In this document: one piece after another, positions 22,228 through 33,927 of the stretch | Layout: each line of letters opens with the position of its first letter | Position numbering within the stretch: the stretch's first letter is position 1 | DNA from: a virus | Taxonomy: Duplodnaviria > Heunggongvirae > Uroviricota > Caudoviricetes | Reading direction: 5' to 3' (one strand) | DNA length: 37,796 bases | IMG/VR virus record: IMGVR_UViG_2897375277_000008 | Span: 1 to 37,796 of that record | Position numbers and translations under genes: made by a program | The notes under the pieces: model-generated | Seen by the model: only the letters and a program-made list of their open reading frames with translations | The model's database searches: none | What the model was told of the DNA's origin: nothing

Positions 22228-22264
22228 ATTATCTCCAATAAAAAACCCGCTAAAGCGGGTCTTG

Positions 22265-22507
22265 TTAGCAACTTATTAACATTGCATGGTTATTTAGCAT
22301 CCAGTCGTTTAACTCATTTTCTGCCCATTCTACGTCTATAAGCACTTTGCATAAATTCGCAGGTTTAAGAAGTTCACCTGCTGACTCCCCTGAAGGCCAA
22401 AAATGCACAGCTACATAATTTTGAGTTACATATGTTTTTTTTATAGTTTGTCGTGTTTCGATTGAGACAATCACATCCGATATTTTACATTTTCTTTTTT
22501 TGACCAA
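22265..22507 (-). CDS. Hypothetical protein
   Basis: 80-aa ORF at the edge of an AT-rich stretch. Confidence 0.3.
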   Translation of the reverse strand: MVKKRKCKISDVIVSIETRQTIKKTYVTQNYVAVHFWPSGESAGELLKPANLCKVLIDVEWAENELNDWMLNNHAMLISC

Positions 22508-23064
22508 AAAATCATGAATTCGCTCCCCAACAGCTTCCTTAAAAATAGTTGAGTTAGCATGTTAATCAAATGTTGCAAAAATAAGTTTAAGTTCGCAATT
22601 TAAAGCCTTAGCTTTTGATATTCCTAATTGCATAGCCTTGTGAGCAGCTAGTATATGATTGCTATTTGCCCTGATTACATACTTTTCCATATTCGCTCTC
22701 CCAAAAAATCAGAGGTATATAATAAGAACACAGAAAAATTTATCAATAAAATCAGCAACAAAAGTAGCTCATCAGCATTACTGACTAAAAGTTCTAATAT
22801 CATTAACAAACGAGTATTGCACTGTACACTTTTTCAAAACGGACAAGTCTTTCAGATACTCACATCGACAACCAATAAAGAACACCAATTGTACTCATCT
22901 CGCGTCAATTCATTGTAGCCTGTGAGCCTATGCTTTCTGATCACAACGCTACCAGTATTATCGCTTCAAGCAGGAATGAACTCCGTATTTTAGCATCCAA
23001 AGGAATTAGCTGTCCCCAAACAGGGTATTAGAACGTAATAATATCACTTTACTAATATAATCAG

Positions 23065-23526
23065 CTAGTTAACACACTGCGCTCTAATGTATTCCTGTAG
23101 GTAATTAACCTGCGCAGTTATCTTGTCGATTCCACTTCGGAGACGGTAATAATTGAATTCAGCATCTGCTGTAAGTCTTGGGCTTTCTCCATCGCCCATG
23201 CCGCTGGCTCTGGTCGTTGATTTTGCACAGGTGGCGGCGACTTGCAGGCGCTTACGCCCAGCAGAAACATCAGCACGGAGGCTTTCGATAGTCGCGTTAG
23301 CATCAGCAAGCTCCTTTGTGTATCTGGCGTCAAGTTCTGCTACGTCACGTTGACGCTTCTGCATATCAGAAATGGTCGCCATAGCCGAATCTAATGCCAT
23401 AGCATTCTCATCACGCTGCTTTTTGTATTCAATAGCTTTATTGTGGTAATGATTCGCTGAACAGATAAAAGAACCAATGACAGTAACGAAGAAAGCAGCG
23501 ATAACCAGCTTATAGCTCAACTTCAT
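23065..23526 (-). CDS. Rz-like i-spanin
   Basis: 153-aa ORF with N-terminal membrane helix and coiled-coil periplasmic part; overlaps endolysin 3' end. Confidence 0.8.
   Translation of the reverse strand: MKLSYKLVIAAFFVTVIGSFICSANHYHNKAIEYKKQRDENAMALDSAMATISDMQKRQRDVAELDARYTKELADANATIESLRADVSAGRKRLQVAATCAKSTTRASGMGDGESPRLTADAEFNYYRLRSGIDKITAQVNYLQEYIRAQCVN
23118..23303 (-). CDS. Rz1-like o-spanin embedded in Rz
   Basis: +1-frame ORF inside Rz; from the internal Met gives MLTRLSKASVLMFLLGVSAC (lipobox) then a Pro-rich segment; track ORF extends to 23333. Confidence 0.6.
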   Translation of the reverse strand: MLTRLSKASVLMFLLGVSACKSPPPVQNQRPEPAAWAMEKAQDLQQMLNSIITVSEVESTR

Positions 23527-23986
23527 TTACCACCCCACCAGCCTCTTTAAATCGGGCAATCAGGTCACCGATTTTATGCTCATACTGACCGTAACCTGCA
23601 CCGGGTAATGACGCCCAGATATTGCTGCAACGATCGATAGCCTGACGGATATCACCGCGATCAATCATCGGTAAAGCACCACGCTCTTTAATCTGCTGCA
23701 ATGCCACTGCGTCCTGGCTTTTGGGGGAGAAGTCTTTCAAACCAAGCTGTTTACGGTAAGCATCCCACCAGCGTGAAAGAAGCTGATAACGCCCGGCGGC
23801 TGTTGATTTGAGTTTGGGGTTTAGCGTGACAAGTTTGCGAGGGTGATCGGAGTAATCAGTAAACAGTTCGCCGCCAACAATAACATCATAACCGTGGTTA
23901 CGTGTCGGTTGTCGCCCGTTATCCGTTCCTTCTGACCATGCCACCATATCGAGGAAAGCTTTACGCTGGGAATTTAGTACCTGCAT
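23510..23986 (-). CDS. Endolysin, lambda R-like lytic transglycosylase
   Basis: 158-aa ORF; long stretches match my recollection of lambda R (…NQRKAFLDM…AWSEGTDNGRQ…NHGYDVIVGGELFTDYSDHPRKLVTLNPKLKST…). Confidence 0.85.
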   Translation of the reverse strand: MQVLNSQRKAFLDMVAWSEGTDNGRQPTRNHGYDVIVGGELFTDYSDHPRKLVTLNPKLKSTAAGRYQLLSRWWDAYRKQLGLKDFSPKSQDAVALQQIKERGALPMIDRGDIRQAIDRCSNIWASLPGAGYGQYEHKIGDLIARFKEAGGVVNEVEL

Positions 23987-23989
23987 AAA

Positions 23990-24316
23990 TTACTCCTTAG
24001 AGCCACCAAACTTGTTACCGATTACTCTCATTGCAGCCCCACGAATAGCATCGACACCGATCAGCCCCACCCCACCACCAATGGCAACAGATAGTGATTT
24101 AGGCCATCCGACATACTCAAGAGCGGATGCAAAAGTCAGCGTCAGAGCGCCACAGAGTAGAATTTCGAGTGTTTTTCGCTTCCAGCCGCCACCACCGCCA
24201 AAATAGGCAATACGTAAACCAGCCATAACAATCGACATAATCACTGCGCCCAGCGGTGTGTCTCCACGCCACCAGCTCTGGACCAACTCCAGCCAGGTAT
24301 TTGGGTTATGAGGCAT
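23990..24316 (-). CDS. Putative holin
   Basis: 108-aa ORF with hydrophobic segments and charged C-terminus immediately upstream of the endolysin. Confidence 0.6.
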   Translation of the reverse strand: MPHNPNTWLELVQSWWRGDTPLGAVIMSIVMAGLRIAYFGGGGGWKRKTLEILLCGALTLTFASALEYVGWPKSLSVAIGGGVGLIGVDAIRGAAMRVIGNKFGGSKE

Positions 24317-24468
24317 TTGTAGTTATCTCTCACCTCGCTGATACAGCAGGTGCAAATTGAGGGAACATCATGTACCGCAAATCAGAAGCGGAAACGTCAA
24401 AGAAGCCGAGCCAATGGATAACTGCGGGATAGACCAGGCCCAACGAATCCCTAGGCCCAGAAACGACA

Positions 24469-24490
24469 AAACCCGCTCAGCGGCGGGTTT
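24469..24490 (-). terminator. Hairpin terminator upstream of the holin gene
   Basis: Stem aaacccgc/gcgggttt with 6-nt loop; on the minus strand followed by UUUUGUCGUUU. Confidence 0.5.
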
Positions 24491-24535
24491 AAGTTGTGTG
24501 GCGAAGTAACCACTCTTAACACGATACAATACTTT

Positions 24536-24565
24536 TTGCGTACGCGTTAGTGAAAAATATATACT
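24536..24565 (+). promoter_or_regulatory. Candidate sigma70 promoter for the two-gene insert
   Basis: TTGCGT (24536..24541), 18-bp spacer, TATACT (24560..24565); AAGGAA Shine-Dalgarno before the ATG at 24645. Confidence 0.35.
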
Positions 24566-24644
24566 ATCAAGCACAATCAGTTAACCTTTGGTTCTGCTGA
24601 ACTAAAAACAGCAATCAGTATTAGTGCTCGTATAAGGAACAGAT

Positions 24645-25580
24645 ATGCTCTTGGGAGATAATGAACGTTTCATGATCAAATGCCAGGTTACTTTAAAGAA
24701 GTATCCTAATGACGCACCTGACATGCCTTTAGTAAACTGTATTCCTGTTTTAAAAAATCGCTATAACAAAGGAGAAGCTGTTTACGAATTAAACAAAGGA
24801 CGTTCTGTCATAAGATTGCTATCCATAAAAGACGATGAAAATTACCTGAAATTGCTTTTTCAATATATAAATAAAGATGCTTCTGATCCCGCCTTTTCCA
24901 ACATAAAAACTGGTGAAACCAGAATTGAGAAAAAGCAAAATGATGAAGGTATGGGGTACTCTGCTCATGTGCTTATCAAAAAAAGACCGAGCGACTCATC
25001 ATTCCAAGATTGTTATGAGGCAATTTTAGAAGAAGTTCCGGGCATTACCAGAGGTTTATTAGCCCAAGCTTTAACTTATTTCCTGCGAGAAAATAATTTT
25101 TCCTTTATCCGTTCAGGAGGGAAAAAAGAACTTAAGTGCAGACCTATTTTCGACATTGATTTTTTGGCTGCAATAACACTTGAGCAATCTCTATCCACTG
25201 GTTATTTATGTGGACTTACTGCTACTCGTCGCTTTAAAGATAACTCTTTAGATGATGATGGCACAGTAATGGTTGAAGAAGAAACACTAAAGCTATCAAC
25301 AAAAATACGTCGCGGAGAGGGTGCAATTAAGGCGATTAAGTCTGCATATGACAAACTTCGTGGTAGAAAGTATACAATGTTAAGAATTTCTTATAAAGAC
25401 AAAAATAAACGCGTTTCATCAGATCTTGTTTCCATCGGAAAAGAAATGAGCTTACAGGAACTCGCAACAGCACAATTGGCACAACGTGAAAAAGCAGTGT
25501 TGGCATCAACAATTGCCGTTTGCCAAACAGCATTTCACGAAGAACTTCTCGCAAAAATGCAAAACTTTATGTTAAAGTGA
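24645..25580 (+). CDS. Hypothetical 311-aa soluble protein, first gene of the AT-rich insert
   Basis: Long ORF with AAGGAA Shine-Dalgarno; no Walker, HNH or other motif I recognise; codon usage visibly AT-rich; opposite strand to the late operon. Confidence 0.7.
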   Translation: MLLGDNERFMIKCQVTLKKYPNDAPDMPLVNCIPVLKNRYNKGEAVYELNKGRSVIRLLSIKDDENYLKLLFQYINKDASDPAFSNIKTGETRIEKKQNDEGMGYSAHVLIKKRPSDSSFQDCYEAILEEVPGITRGLLAQALTYFLRENNFSFIRSGGKKELKCRPIFDIDFLAAITLEQSLSTGYLCGLTATRRFKDNSLDDDGTVMVEEETLKLSTKIRRGEGAIKAIKSAYDKLRGRKYTMLRISYKDKNKRVSSDLVSIGKEMSLQELATAQLAQREKAVLASTIAVCQTAFHEELLAKMQNFMLK

Positions 25581-25612
25581 AGGCATGGAAAACCTGTCAA
25601 AAGGAGGCATAT

Positions 25613-26182
25613 ATGTATGTTTTATCTAAGGTTTTTACACCTATAGACTACCTACGCATAAAGCATCCTGAGAAGCGATTTTTTGACTGGGTTTTACCCA
25701 TTTTCACTGCTGCAATTATTACTTTATCCATCTATTACTTACCGAAAACCATCTCACTTCTCGGGAAGGATAGTCTTGTGTCTTTAGTAAACGGGATACT
25801 TCAAATACTATCTGGTTTTTACATTGCATCTATGGCTGCAGTTGCAACCTTCAGTAAGGATGGTATGGATGAAGTTATGCATGGCATACCTCCGGTATTA
25901 AAAGGTAAAAAACTTACAAGGCGTAAATTCCTCACTTATCTATTTGGTTATTTAGCGTTTATGAGCATCGCGCTGTATTTCGTTGGAGGAGCACTTCAAC
26001 TAACCAGTGCAAGCATCAAGGAATTACACCTTTCATCATATCCACTAGTGAAATCATTACTTTTGTTTATTTATTTAAGTACCATATGCAACATTATATA
26101 CACAACGGCATTAGGTATGTATTTTATGATAGACAAAATGCATGATGAAAAATCGAAACTTATAATTAAAGATAAAGAATGA
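25613..26182 (+). CDS. Hypothetical 189-aa membrane protein with four predicted TM helices
   Basis: Start set at ATG 25613 (AAGGAGG 5 nt upstream; track ORF begins 25520). Four hydrophobic segments of about 20 to 28 aa and a Lys-rich tail. Confidence 0.65.
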   Translation: MYVLSKVFTPIDYLRIKHPEKRFFDWVLPIFTAAIITLSIYYLPKTISLLGKDSLVSLVNGILQILSGFYIASMAAVATFSKDGMDEVMHGIPPVLKGKKLTRRKFLTYLFGYLAFMSIALYFVGGALQLTSASIKELHLSSYPLVKSLLLFIYLSTICNIIYTTALGMYFMIDKMHDEKSKLIIKDKE

Positions 26183-26206
26183 GGCTTACGCCTCATTCTT
26201 TTTAGA
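26175..26206 (+). terminator. Intrinsic terminator between the convergent insert and Q gene
   Basis: Perfect 11-bp stem aagaatgaggc/gcctcattctt, loop ttac, then T-run; overlaps the insert gene stop and the Q stop codon. Confidence 0.7.
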
Positions 26207-26564
26207 ACTCAATCAAACAAATACATCCTTCAACAAACCCCAAGGCAGTCTGCAATTTTTTCCTAACTGTGCCATCTGAACATCTTCTCTTCTTGGCAAT
26301 AGTGCGTAATGAGATACCAATGACAAAGTGAGCTATGATTAGCTCATATTCCTCTGGTTTATACTTTCTCAACCGAGCCACACAACTGTCTATCATAATG
26401 CCTTCGTCATCATCACACTGAACCCGGGACTTTTTGCCATGAGGTAAAAGCCCCTTGAAGCCTGCAGCTATCGGCTGCCAGTCCACGCCACTGTTATCTG
26501 CTGCAGCCCATGCTCCCCAGCGGTCCAATACTTCATACATATCACGCATCAACTTTCTCCACAA
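26202..26564 (-). CDS. Late antiterminator Q (QuuD-like small Q family)
   Basis: 120-aa ORF with ...VLDRWGAWAAADN...IAAGFKGL...; matches my recollection of DLP12 QuuD; sits upstream of the lysis genes. Confidence 0.7.
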   Translation of the reverse strand: MWRKLMRDMYEVLDRWGAWAAADNSGVDWQPIAAGFKGLLPHGKKSRVQCDDDEGIMIDSCVARLRKYKPEEYELIIAHFVIGISLRTIAKKRRCSDGTVRKKLQTALGFVEGCICLIEF

Positions 26565-26566
26565 AA

Positions 26567-27562
26567 TCAGGCCAGCACGCCAATTGCCAGCGCACGATCG
26601 ATAAAACGAAATATCAGCTCCAGCTGGGAGCCATACTTCTCTTCAAATGCCACGGTATCCGCATGCAGCTCGTCGTGATGCTTTCTGCACAAAGGCAACA
26701 CAAAGAGGTCATGCGCTTTTGTTCCCATTCCACCCTGACCGTGACCTATCAGGTGGTGGGGATCATCAGCAGGCTTTCCACAACATGCACACGGCTGTGT
26801 CTTAACCCAGCGCGTGTACTTTTCATTAACCCAGCGGCGACGTTTTGGGCGTAACATAAAAGACCCCGGCGACTCCGGATCCACTTTCAGCGCCAGCACC
26901 TTTTTCGCTTTATCCTGGATGATGCTGGTGGCAGGAACCGAAGGCACAAGGTCACTTTCCCGGGTAACAGACGGCACAACAGGCTTCGGTAATCTCAGTG
27001 CCTTACGGGCTGCACTTTCCGGTAAGGCATCCGCCAGGTCATTACGAACCAGCCACCAGCACAGTTCCGGCATTGTCACAACGTGACTATCATCAAAACC
27101 GAGATCACGGCGCACAACAGATAACACCCAGCGGGCACAGTTATCCGTTGCCATTGATTCCAGCCGTTCCGTGAACTGATCACGCAACTGGTTATCGCAG
27201 TGCCAACACAGACGGATTACGCCCGGCGCGCGTCGCATTGTGGTCATGTTCTCGCTGTGCCAGTCGGAATGAGGCCACTGACAGCCCTTTTCACGAAGTA
27301 ACCAGCTTTCAAGACATTCCACGCCACCAGCACGACGGATCACTGCCTCATTGCGGAACACGGCCCGAACGGCAGGATCATCCGCCAGCGGTTGTGATGC
27401 CGCTGGAACGGCACCACTGGCGAAAGATGAATAACGCTCCGGCTCAGGCTCCAGCAGGACACGCCCCTGCATAAACAGGGGCATCAGCTCTGAACCAGGC
27501 CTGAACAATACGATCCCCATACGCGGGGCAATTTCAGGGGTCAGTAGTGCTCTCACGGTCAC
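26567..27562 (-). CDS. Nin-region protein, DUF968-like, with C-terminal Cys/His cluster
   Basis: 331-aa ORF; C-terminus CACCGKPADDPHHLIGHGQ...CRKHHDELH suggests a metal-binding or HNH-like module. Confidence 0.5.
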   Translation of the reverse strand: MTVRALLTPEIAPRMGIVLFRPGSELMPLFMQGRVLLEPEPERYSSFASGAVPAASQPLADDPAVRAVFRNEAVIRRAGGVECLESWLLREKGCQWPHSDWHSENMTTMRRAPGVIRLCWHCDNQLRDQFTERLESMATDNCARWVLSVVRRDLGFDDSHVVTMPELCWWLVRNDLADALPESAARKALRLPKPVVPSVTRESDLVPSVPATSIIQDKAKKVLALKVDPESPGSFMLRPKRRRWVNEKYTRWVKTQPCACCGKPADDPHHLIGHGQGGMGTKAHDLFVLPLCRKHHDELHADTVAFEEKYGSQLELIFRFIDRALAIGVLA

Positions 27563-27563
27563 C

Positions 27564-28394
27564 TCAATGAACGGTATCGAGCAGCTTTAACAGCTCAGGG
27601 AATCGGGATTCGAAGAAATGCGGCTGCGTCTCGCGCGGATTTGCAGGACTGGTGATGTTCTTGCCGAACATGCAGCCTTTCGCCGTTAGCGACCAGAATT
27701 TTTTGATGTTGTTAATCGCGGTACGGCTGTATCGTTCGCGTTGTTCAACGATCCCCAGCTTCACCATCTGGTGATATGCCTGATTAGCCGTCAGGCGGAT
27801 ACCATACTGCTTCAGCAGTGCACTCAGCGACAGCGTGGGGCGACTTGAGCCATCGTGTGCATCAGCAGGAGCATCAACGGCATAGCGCGGTGCCAGATTC
27901 GGTAAGCCAACAGCCTCCTGGAGTTTCTGACAGGCCCCAAGCACAGATGAGTTAGACAGGTTTAACTCCCGACGCATAAAGTCCAGCAGAATCACTCCAG
28001 CCTGCATCTTGTCAGCAGCCTGTCCGGATAATTTTTCCGGTGCGCTGGTTACCATGTCGAAAGTACGGATCACCTTCAGATGGAATGACGGGCTGATCCA
28101 CATTGCATAGGCATACACCAGTTCCTTACAGACATACGTCCCCTGATTATTTCCGCCGCGAATAACGTTAACTGGCTCTATATTGACCGAGTTGCAAATC
28201 TGCAACTCGCTTATTAAACGTTCAGTTTGCTCATTGCGGAGCCAGAATGCAGGCTTATGCTTATCCAGAGAACCGGCAGCCCTGTGCAGATCGTTCAGGC
28301 TGTAACGCCCATAAGCATCACGACGAACTTCAATACCATCAATGACCATCAGATTATTCATACTTCGTTTCTCCTCTTGATCAGGCGGCTGCAC
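27564..28394 (-). CDS. KilA-N domain protein (antirepressor-like)
   Basis: 276-aa ORF; N-terminal region ...MVIDGIEVRRDAYGRYSLNDLHRAAG... is KilA-N-like. Confidence 0.55.
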   Translation of the reverse strand: MQPPDQEEKRSMNNLMVIDGIEVRRDAYGRYSLNDLHRAAGSLDKHKPAFWLRNEQTERLISELQICNSVNIEPVNVIRGGNNQGTYVCKELVYAYAMWISPSFHLKVIRTFDMVTSAPEKLSGQAADKMQAGVILLDFMRRELNLSNSSVLGACQKLQEAVGLPNLAPRYAVDAPADAHDGSSRPTLSLSALLKQYGIRLTANQAYHQMVKLGIVEQRERYSRTAINNIKKFWSLTAKGCMFGKNITSPANPRETQPHFFESRFPELLKLLDTVH

Positions 28395-33314: not shown

Positions 33315-33521
33315 ATGCACAAAACAGAACCAAAAATCGTCGCGCCCGGATACACAAATGAGGAAATTTACGAGTGGATGGCAAAGAAGCTGGCAGCTAT
33401 AAACCAGCTTCGTGAAGTGCTGTCTTATCGACAGGAAACAATAGACTCCTTAAAAAAACTGGATCAGGAAATCACGGTTTTATCACAGGATGTTACTTTA
33501 GATATTGTGCAGACAAATTAG
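33315..33521 (+). CDS. Hypothetical 68-aa protein (first gene after P_L-like promoter)
   Basis: Start at ATG 33315 with strong GAGGAGG Shine-Dalgarno (track ORF starts 33300); predicted helical, not Arg-rich. Confidence 0.5.
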   Translation: MHKTEPKIVAPGYTNEEIYEWMAKKLAAINQLREVLSYRQETIDSLKKLDQEITVLSQDVTLDIVQTN

Positions 33522-33927
33522 GATCCCATTCATTTTCGTCAAAATCATCAAAGTGATGAATTTGTGATCTCCAGTCTCGATAATCTAAAAATTTCTGGGC
33601 GGTTACGCTTATTTTATCAAGCGTGAGTTCATCCTGAATTGAAAGAAGAAGTTCATCAAATTTCATCTCATTAATCTGTTTTGGCATCCAGTGATGCTTC
33701 ATCAGAATAAGGTGAACCAGAGCTTTTTTCCCATTCAACTGATTATAGGGAGTGCCGAATTTCTTCCGGTGCTCATGTAAGACAAGGTCCAGAAGAGTAA
33801 GTAATGTTGCCCTTGATTCAACTTTGCTTATTTCGACTGATGACACTACCCCACTGATTTCAATGCCCCGATACTTTCCAACATTTTCACAGTGGGATTT
33901 GTACAGCGTATAGATATTACCGGACAT
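33493..33927 (-). CDS. Hypothetical 144-aa protein in the immunity region
   Basis: ORF convergent with and overlapping the 68-aa gene by 29 bp; AT-rich; direct repeats in its upstream region. Confidence 0.5.
   Translation of the reverse strand: MSGNIYTLYKSHCENVGKYRGIEISGVVSSVEISKVESRATLLTLLDLVLHEHRKKFGTPYNQLNGKKALVHLILMKHHWMPKQINEMKFDELLLSIQDELTLDKISVTAQKFLDYRDWRSQIHHFDDFDENEWDPNLSAQYLK

Follow-up and report, generated by a model that had tools for sequence, protein, structure and literature searches.

A lambdoid late-control region of the Q21/Q933W type with a cargo slot between Q and its predicted late promoter

We describe the late-control region of a lambdoid prophage in a viral record of the Caudoviricetes (IMG/VR record IMGVR_UViG_2897375277_000008, positions 1 to 37,796; this whole stretch of 37,796 nucleotides is referred to as the window), in which a pair of genes on the plus strand stands between the antiterminator gene Q and the lysis genes, which like Q are read on the minus strand. 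An initial annotation of positions 24,469 to 26,206 had proposed that this insert lies antisense in the path of the late operon and could be silenced by late transcription during lytic growth. Using comparisons with related phage and prophage loci we identify a probable late promoter, pR′, together with an element through which Q may act on it, and characterize the space between Q and this promoter as a slot that is filled with differing genes in different relatives.

The late-control region and its inserted gene pair

The late-control region occupies 22-28.5 kb of the window and is read on the minus strand. It contains genes for a KilA-N protein (27564-28394, minus) and a DUF968/YdfU protein (26567-27562, minus), followed by Q (26202-26564, minus), whose product belongs to the Q21/Q933W family of antiterminators (PF06530, Phage_antitermQ; E 6.4e-46, profile positions 1-113 of 118). 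Alignment with relatives indicates that the ATG at 26549 is likely the true start of Q, giving a protein of 115 amino acids; the Q of Stx1_14040, which is 88% identical to that of the window, begins at the equivalent of M6. The match of the window Q to the solved Q21 structures (6P18 and 6JNX) is weak (E 1e-3). Pfam matches, the list of open reading frames (ORFs) and the annotations of near-identical Escherichia coli loci together delimit a lysis cassette at 23065..24316 (minus), which comprises a holin gene (23990-24316, minus; PF05106, E 6e-25), an endolysin-type ORF (23510-23986, minus) and Rz (23065-23526, minus; PF03245), with a candidate Rz1-type ORF lying in a different frame within Rz (23118-23333). 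The endolysin-type ORF gave no match in the Pfam search of the window; related records annotate the same ORF as a glycoside hydrolase of family 24/104.

Between Q and the holin gene the plus strand carries the two genes of the insert, and the Pfam matches and ORF list bear out the initial annotation as to this order and these orientations. The features that it described are all present, none displaced by more than a base or two from the coordinates given. The first gene (24645-25580, plus) codes for a PDC-M53A-like protein of 311 residues (PADLOC PDLC04696, E 3.5e-17), and the second (25613-26182, plus), which has a ribosome-binding site AGGAGG at 25602-25607, for a hydrophobic, predicted membrane protein of 189 residues that resembles PDC-M53B (PDLC04699, E 2.7e-39, spanning profile positions 2-186 of 188). 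Membership of the pair in PDC-M53 rests on the match to both profiles by adjacent genes on the same strand, with A before B. PDC-M53 is a candidate defence system in PADLOC only, and the literature mention that we found is one genome survey. Both proteins fall into PHROG families without an assigned function (phrog_16499 for the 311-residue and phrog_8257 for the 189-residue protein), and searches of Pfam and NCBIfam returned no family for either of them.

The GC content of the insert is 0.33-0.39, against 0.49-0.55 in its flanks. When a query of 2.8 kb (23900-26700) was compared with the chromosome of E. coli strain H22 (NZ_CP120563.1), the two agreed at 99.9% identity along the entire query, and PDC-M53 cargo in this frame occurs in 4 of the 5426 complete E. 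coli genomes. The insert lies between the stop codon of Q and the -35 element of the promoter described below, being divergent from that promoter and convergent on Q. Its 5′ flank (24551..24644, plus) is cargo-specific, in that it is not conserved in loci with other cargo, and presumably holds the insert's own promoter.

The predicted late promoter between the insert and the holin gene

Directly past the insert lies a block of ~90 bp (24458-24550, minus) with homology, in 933W/Sp5 and in DLP12, to the late promoter and the first hairpin. Homology to the pR′ of 933W, to the start determined by differential RNA sequencing (dRNA-seq) in Sp5 and to the Cappable-seq start of DLP12 places within it a predicted pR′ (24514..24550, minus), with the -35 element CTAACG (24550..24545, minus), the -10 element TATCGT (24526..24521, minus) and an A at +1 (24514, minus). 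The motif ACGCGTACGCAAAAA at -33..-19 (24547..24533, minus), invariant or nearly so among relatives, constitutes a putative Q-binding element. Relatives of the block were recovered in 358 phage records; in the window it is present as a single copy and no second copy was found. To set the limits of conservation we aligned four loci that have the same Q and holin and different cargo. On the holin side the common sequence starts abruptly at 24549 and continues through the hairpin to the holin gene, 24551-24644 being specific to the cargo, and on the Q side similarity among loci with the same Q ends at the Q stop codon. Since conservation between Q and the holin gene is thus confined to positions up to 24550, the elements that work together with Q must lie at or below this point.

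The position of the start is anchored by mapped starts in relatives. Sy et al. mapped the PR′ start of Sakai Sp5 and Sp15 by dRNA-seq, with a 3′ end 258 nt downstream (PMC7547250). In Sp5 this start is the A of GATAAG-A-GTGG, 7 nt after TATCAT and exactly 258 nt (both ends counted) from the last T of the second terminator; the homologous base of the window is 24514. In 933W the block overlaps the Q stop codon and contains the annotated late promoter pR′ (TTTACG-16-TATCAT), which is followed by GATAAGAGTGGTTAC... and a hairpin terminator, and in Stx2_14040 it lies 15 bp past the Q stop codon, ahead of a methylase gene, tRNAs and stx2. In DLP12 of E. coli K-12 the homologous A is NC_000913.3:577229, which by the version offset is U00096.2:576452. 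We take this offset to be 777 bp (a 776-bp IS1 plus 1 bp upstream of the DLP12 start). Precisely this position, U00096.2:576452, is given as a plus-strand start in the Cappable-seq table of Ettwiller et al. (PMC4782308 supplement). Hence, the homologous base has been mapped both without cargo, in Sp5, and with antisense cargo, in DLP12. Sakai Sp15 was also considered as a cargo-bearing dRNA-seq case and was set aside, as it is without antisense cargo.

DLP12 has in addition a much stronger plus-strand start at U00096.2:576081 (score 90 versus 1.7), located in the nmpC-side flank and directed towards essD. It lies ~370 nt upstream of the pR′-like start and 16 nt from the start implied by a published DLP12 reporter fragment, '-121..+650'. 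This fragment (PMC7918800) was rejected as a representative of pR′: it begins at position 1555 of locus L008 and implies a start at about L008:1676, ~355 nt upstream, and therefore concerns a different promoter. The strong start at 576081 indicates that cargo flanks can carry promoters of their own aimed at the lysis genes.

We then examined the conservation of the block across the clade of the window Q. From viral contigs and one genome per species we obtained 112 loci with relatives of this Q, the genome loci being from Shigella, Enterobacter, Klebsiella, Citrobacter, Kosakonia, Raoultella, Serratia, Pantoea, Erwinia, Yersinia and further genera. The window and other loci that were retrieved brought the total to 115 loci, with 69 distinct block sequences. 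Across the 69 sequences the segment -35..-19 (TAACGCGTACGCAAAAA) is invariant or nearly so, and the upstream motif GCGTACGC at -31..-24 (24545-24538 in the window) does not vary at all. The positions -12T, -11A, -7T and -6G are each found in 69/69, with -10..-8 varying freely to give 13 different TAnnnT hexamers, and +1..+6 (AGTGGT) are nearly invariant. A hairpin with a T-tract, starting at +15 to +40 and mostly at +24 to +38, is present in 53 of the 69; other genera often have another terminator stem (CCTCGC...GCGGGG). This pattern of conservation reads as the signature of a selected -10 element that is followed by a functionally conserved terminator. The homology to mapped starts and the conservation of TAnnnT together point to a sigma-70 late promoter feeding the lysis genes.

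A scan of the region returned 10 terminator-like sites, where 2.6 are expected. The late terminator tR′ (stem 24490..24469, or 24458..24490 with its T-rich tail; minus), supported by both the scan and the predicted fold, is the minus-strand hairpin that had been correctly recognized in the initial annotation. Its stem, AAACCCGCCGCTGAGCGGGTTT, then TGTCGTTT, begins at +25 and is the sole terminator-like site from the promoter to the holin gene; the window hence holds an intrinsic terminator soon after the promoter and before the late genes. A small hairpin (GUGGU...GCCAC; 24498..24513, minus) is predicted by folding for the first 16 nt of the late transcript, and beyond tR′ an untranslated leader (24317..24457, minus), conserved with SfII and with E. 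coli loci having the same holin, extends to the holin start codon. An Rfam search of the whole window recovered no family at threshold, the sub-threshold matches over the block (isrK, isrJ and Hrs10) being at chance level.

In these comparisons the spacer between -35 and -10 changes in step with the type of Q. The window and Stx1_14040, with their closely similar Q proteins, share the spacer motif ACGCGTACGCAAAA, and QuuD and Q933W, which are 78% identical, both go with TTTACGnnCGTAAAAA. Identity between the window Q and QuuD is 47%, and their spacer motifs differ; the window Q is 56% identical to the Q of Stx2_14040, which goes with GTGCGGTCCGCAAAAAG. The site bound by Q21 likewise lies between -35 and -10, where TGAGCA is directly repeated and the C:G pairs at -21 and -13 are contacted, and loading of the Q21 type needs a -10-like pause element (PMC6606751). 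Because the Q21 site has this position, the invariant motif GCGTACGC, or the -33..-19 element as a whole, is the likely candidate for the Q-binding site of the window.

We put at about 85% the probability that the late promoter lies between the insert and the holin gene, with late transcription starting past the insert. Q, made from the early rightward operon, would then act in trans at a promoter 1.65 kb further on. In the lysogen pR′ would make only a short RNA of ~50-57 nt, and after induction Q would load on RNA polymerase at pR′, probably via the invariant ACGCGTACGC motif between -35 and -10, allowing the Q-loaded polymerase to read past tR′ into the genes for the holin, the endolysin and Rz. 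The homology, the pattern of conservation, the covariation with Q type and the starts mapped in relatives are observed; for this phage itself we infer promoter activity, Q dependence and Q binding.

Several observations weigh against this interpretation. By its consensus the promoter is weak, with 3 of 6 matches at -35, 4 of 6 at -10 and an 18-bp spacer, and it was not flagged by a generic promoter scan; moreover, the read score of the DLP12 start at 576452 is low (1.7). At -31..-24 the conserved motif forms a palindrome, further upstream than the direct repeats of Q21, and +1..+20 of the 69 sequences showed no conserved pause element of the -10-like kind (TAnnnT), the TACTTC at +7..+12 being without the final T and +7 being C in 22/69. 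The Sp5 homologue of the tR′ hairpin is evidently read through, as the mapped RNA is 258 nt long. Given that this RNA, the precursor of the small RNA StxS, ends at the second terminator, the first hairpin of Sp5 must be at least partly read through without Q, and the efficiency of termination at 24469-24490, the window's only terminator on the way to the holin gene, is therefore uncertain. The first hairpin and T-tract of Sp5 (positions 766-794 of locus L012), situated ~25 nt past the late start, resemble a good terminator.

The cargo slot and possible transcription across it

The insert occupies a cargo slot of a known type, ahead of the predicted late promoter. The same frame of Q and holin is found in thousands of E. 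coli genomes with differing genes in between, such as PDC-M53, the Kiwa genes KwaA/KwaB, the SfII_49/50 pair and others. In each of the 115 loci of the Q clade the gap from the Q stop codon to the block measures 616-3753 bp and is never empty, and its contents comprise 34 gene arrangements drawn from 50 protein clusters. In the window the distance from the Q stop codon to the conserved motif that marks the promoter block is 1654 bp. This departs from the usual textbook layout, with the promoter directly after the Q gene, which is a habit of layout and not a functional requirement. On sequence grounds we regard the window as a late-control cassette of the Q21/Q933W type that a cargo slot has split.

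Of the cargo ORFs of at least 100 amino acids, 190/192 are antisense to Q. The cargo that could be identified consists of two PDC-M53 variants, Kiwa, several NA37-family proteins, one of them with a CxxC...CxxC motif resembling a zinc ribbon at its N terminus, and a metallophosphatase-NACHT STAND NTPase; the majority of clusters are unannotated. Many of the unannotated pairs combine a protein of ~300 residues with a hydrophobic partner. PADLOC searches with ten other cargo representatives gave as their sole match the second PDC-M53A variant; Pfam searches of the cargo added the NA37, metallophosphatase and NACHT domains. This layout is already visible in DLP12/PA-2, with nmpC/lc as cargo, and in SfII, and a limited literature check found no description of the slot as a general orientation-locked hotspot.

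At the convergent junction of Q and the insert, the scan and the predicted fold agree on a two-way hairpin (26174-26201, both strands), which has a 12-bp stem with a predicted folding energy (dG) of -17.4 kcal/mol on the plus and -20.0 kcal/mol on the minus strand, and z = -6.6 on both. The initial annotation had reported a bidirectional hairpin overlapping the stop codon of Q; a strong two-way hairpin indeed exists, but it abuts that stop codon (26202-26204) and covers instead the stop codon of the second insert gene. The T-tract that runs into the Q stop codon is that of the plus strand only, and the minus-strand side, in the direction of Q, also has a T-rich tail. As judged from the alignments, the hairpin would belong to the insert cassette, the sequence past the Q stop codon being cargo-specific. 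Among distinct Q/cargo junction sequences a hairpin of dG -7 or better is found near the Q stop codon in 24/51 and is absent from the remaining 27/51. A terminator between Q and cargo is therefore not general to the slot, and read-through of early transcription into the cargo may be common in relatives.

Such read-through might also occur in the window, in addition to the proposed start of late transcription at 24514: the early rightward transcript of Q would run on past the Q stop codon, antisense over the insert, and dampen the insert at induction. Q and the insert converge with no spacer other than the hairpin, and the absence of a strong hairpin from more than half of the junctions speaks for the same process, which would also explain the near-universal antisense orientation of the cargo. 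In lambda, N-modified early transcription continues past Q. However, the orientation bias is explained equally well by the need to keep cargo transcription off pR′ and the lysis genes in the lysogen, and at the junction of the window a strong hairpin is followed, on the minus strand, by a T-rich tail. Furthermore, no N-like antiterminator was recognized in the short leftward arm of the window, and the early polymerase may therefore be sensitive to terminators. Most early transcription is expected to stop at 26174-26201. Thus, we consider early read-through over the insert unlikely, if still worth reckoning with; antisense RNA over the insert is possible only from early transcription that passes Q.

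Another explanation holds that the conserved block is a mere transcribed leader with its terminator and that each cargo flank supplies the working promoter, which in the window would be TTAACT-17-TATATT (24584..24556, minus). The generic scan does find this pair of hexamers (9/12) and misses the conserved pair, and the strong DLP12 start at U00096.2:576081 falls upstream of the block, within the flank next to the cargo. Nevertheless, loci with other cargo lack the hexamers, and in so AT-rich a stretch matches of this kind are no more frequent than chance would give, the scan having returned 2 promoter-like sites in the region where 6.9 are expected. Both of these sites, TTAACT-17-TATATT and an intragenic one at 25397..25369, were rejected as the late promoter for being cargo-specific and at the level of chance. 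Loading of Q requires a specific site embedded in the promoter, which a variable flank cannot supply; a mere leader would leave the conservation of TAnnnT at -12..-7 unexplained; and the starts of Sp5 and DLP12 map to the conserved A. A promoter in the cargo flank is hence quite improbable.

Least credible is the arrangement behind the silencing proposed in the initial annotation, with a late promoter adjoining Q from which Q-modified polymerase reads antisense through the ~1.7 kb insert and shuts it down in lytic growth: although textbook lambdoid cassettes have pR′ directly after Q (overlapping its stop codon in 933W) and control of an antisense defence gene by a late transcript has a precedent in phi80 Tai/Ati (PMC11364771), only 19 bp, all of it hairpin, separate the Q stop codon from the end of the insert, the sequence past that stop codon is unconserved among loci with the same Q, neither a minus-strand promoter-like site nor a copy of the pR′ block was found within or after Q, in 115/115 loci the cargo stands between Q and the conserved block that varies with it, and the start of DLP12, which has antisense cargo too, was mapped beyond that cargo. 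The initial annotation had left two courses for late transcription, a start past the insert or passage antisense through it, and had named a single late promoter at roughly 24500..24640, with no antisense signal over the insert during induction, as the outcome that would speak against its proposal; the predicted pR′ at 24550-24514 falls in that interval, favouring the first course over the second. With the late start at 24514, past the insert, the insert would be outside the path of the late operon, and Q-modified polymerase could not cross it. Accordingly, no special mechanism of antisense silencing by the late operon is needed.

A broader hypothesis, which we offer as a speculation that is more probably wrong than right, is that, in one Q clade across the Enterobacterales, the gap from Q to the promoter serves as a dedicated slot for cargo of locked orientation, whose defence genes are expressed in the lysogen from their own promoters, are insulated from the lysis genes and are shut down at induction by convergent early read-through (pR to Q). 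If so, the idea of antisense silencing would hold after all, driven by the early instead of the late transcript. The slot would also be a rich unexplored source of new defence systems, with ~50 protein clusters, most of them without annotation. Independently of this hypothesis, the gap from Q to the promoter is a variable slot in E. coli, Shigella, Enterobacter, Klebsiella, Citrobacter, Serratia, Yersinia and others, and could be mined in the manner of the P2/P4 hotspots. For a widespread clade of Q the comparisons further predict the late promoter to the base and offer a candidate Q-binding motif unlike the solved Q21 site.

Two other features of the window may be recorded here. A second stretch of low GC (0.32-0.36) lies at 22250-23000, just past Rz. 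Its ORFs are all short, with 80 amino acids at 22265-22507 (minus) and 87 amino acids at 22655-22918 (plus), and lack a PHROG match; the stretch may represent a remnant or a further moron. An ORF of 144 amino acids (33493-33927, minus), which matches the 'ECs1072 family phage-associated protein' (NF033230, E 2e-46), runs against the leftward operon, between the repressor and xis/int.

Comparison with known systems

The locus is a late promoter-terminator module of the Q933W/DLP12 type in which a slot for morons or defence genes separates Q from the promoter. Its closest parallels in the Shiga toxin (Stx) phages, 933W and Sakai Sp5 and Sp15, share with the window the PF06530 Q, the homologous promoter block with the -10 in the same position, the start context (T/A)TAAG-A-GTGGTTAC and a first hairpin with T-tract at ~+25. 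In these phages, however, the promoter overlaps the Q stop codon, whereas the window has 1.65 kb of antisense cargo between the two, and the difference in spacer motif (TTTACGATCGTAAAAA versus CTAACGCGTACGCAAAAA) accompanies a Q identity of 45%. The Stx phages also run on to a second terminator 258 nt out, yielding StxS, whereas the transcript of the window would lead straight to the holin gene. StxS is a 258-nt PR′-tR′ transcript whose 3′ 74 nt form an Hfq-binding small RNA; only its first ~50 nt are homologous to the window, from which the second terminator and the StxS-S sequence are absent. As the same module drives toxin expression in the Stx phages, the promoter proposed here is of relevance to them.

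The qsr′ region of DLP12/PA-2 (quuD - nmpC/lc - essD) resembles the window in its order of a Q, an accessory gene on the opposite strand that is expressed in the lysogen, a homologous block and a holin, and DLP12 in its start mapped at the homologous A past antisense cargo. It differs in having a porin (nmpC) as cargo, a Q that is 47% identical, another spacer motif, an S21-like holin and the extra strong start in the cargo-side flank. The phage '434B' (OL657227; loci L008 and L126) has the same Q-nmpC::IS5-holin gene order as DLP12, including the nmpC interrupted by IS5; its record marks this segment as a region of 434 non-homology, and from the gene order it looks like a pick-up from the DLP12 of the host.

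Phage 21, with its Q and PR′21, belongs to the same Pfam family and is expected to follow the same logic, namely a Q site between -35 and -10, sigma-dependent pausing and a nearby terminator that is read through. The two Q proteins are nonetheless only ~30% identical over ~80 residues (E 1e-3), and the phage 21 site is a direct repeat of TGAGCA, whereas the element of the window is the palindrome GCGTACGC. The 'noncontiguous operon' Tai/Ati of phi80 is another case of a prophage defence gene set against the late genes; there tai, the defence gene, is embedded in the late operon in antisense orientation, and expression of Q lowers Tai (PMC11364771). In contrast to phi80, where the gene on the opposite strand is inside the Q-dependent late transcript, the insert of the window (24645-26182) lies upstream of the predicted late start at 24514.

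Finally, the slot is comparable to the prophage defence hotspots of P2/P4 (Rousset 2022; Vassallo 2022). Both are fixed positions that receive many unrelated low-GC cassettes of one to three genes, mostly uncharacterized and including known defence systems, in the slot Kiwa, PDC-M53 and a STAND NTPase. The slot is distinguished from the P2/P4 hotspots by the phage family in which it occurs, by its position between Q and the promoter of Q, and by a near-absolute rule of orientation.

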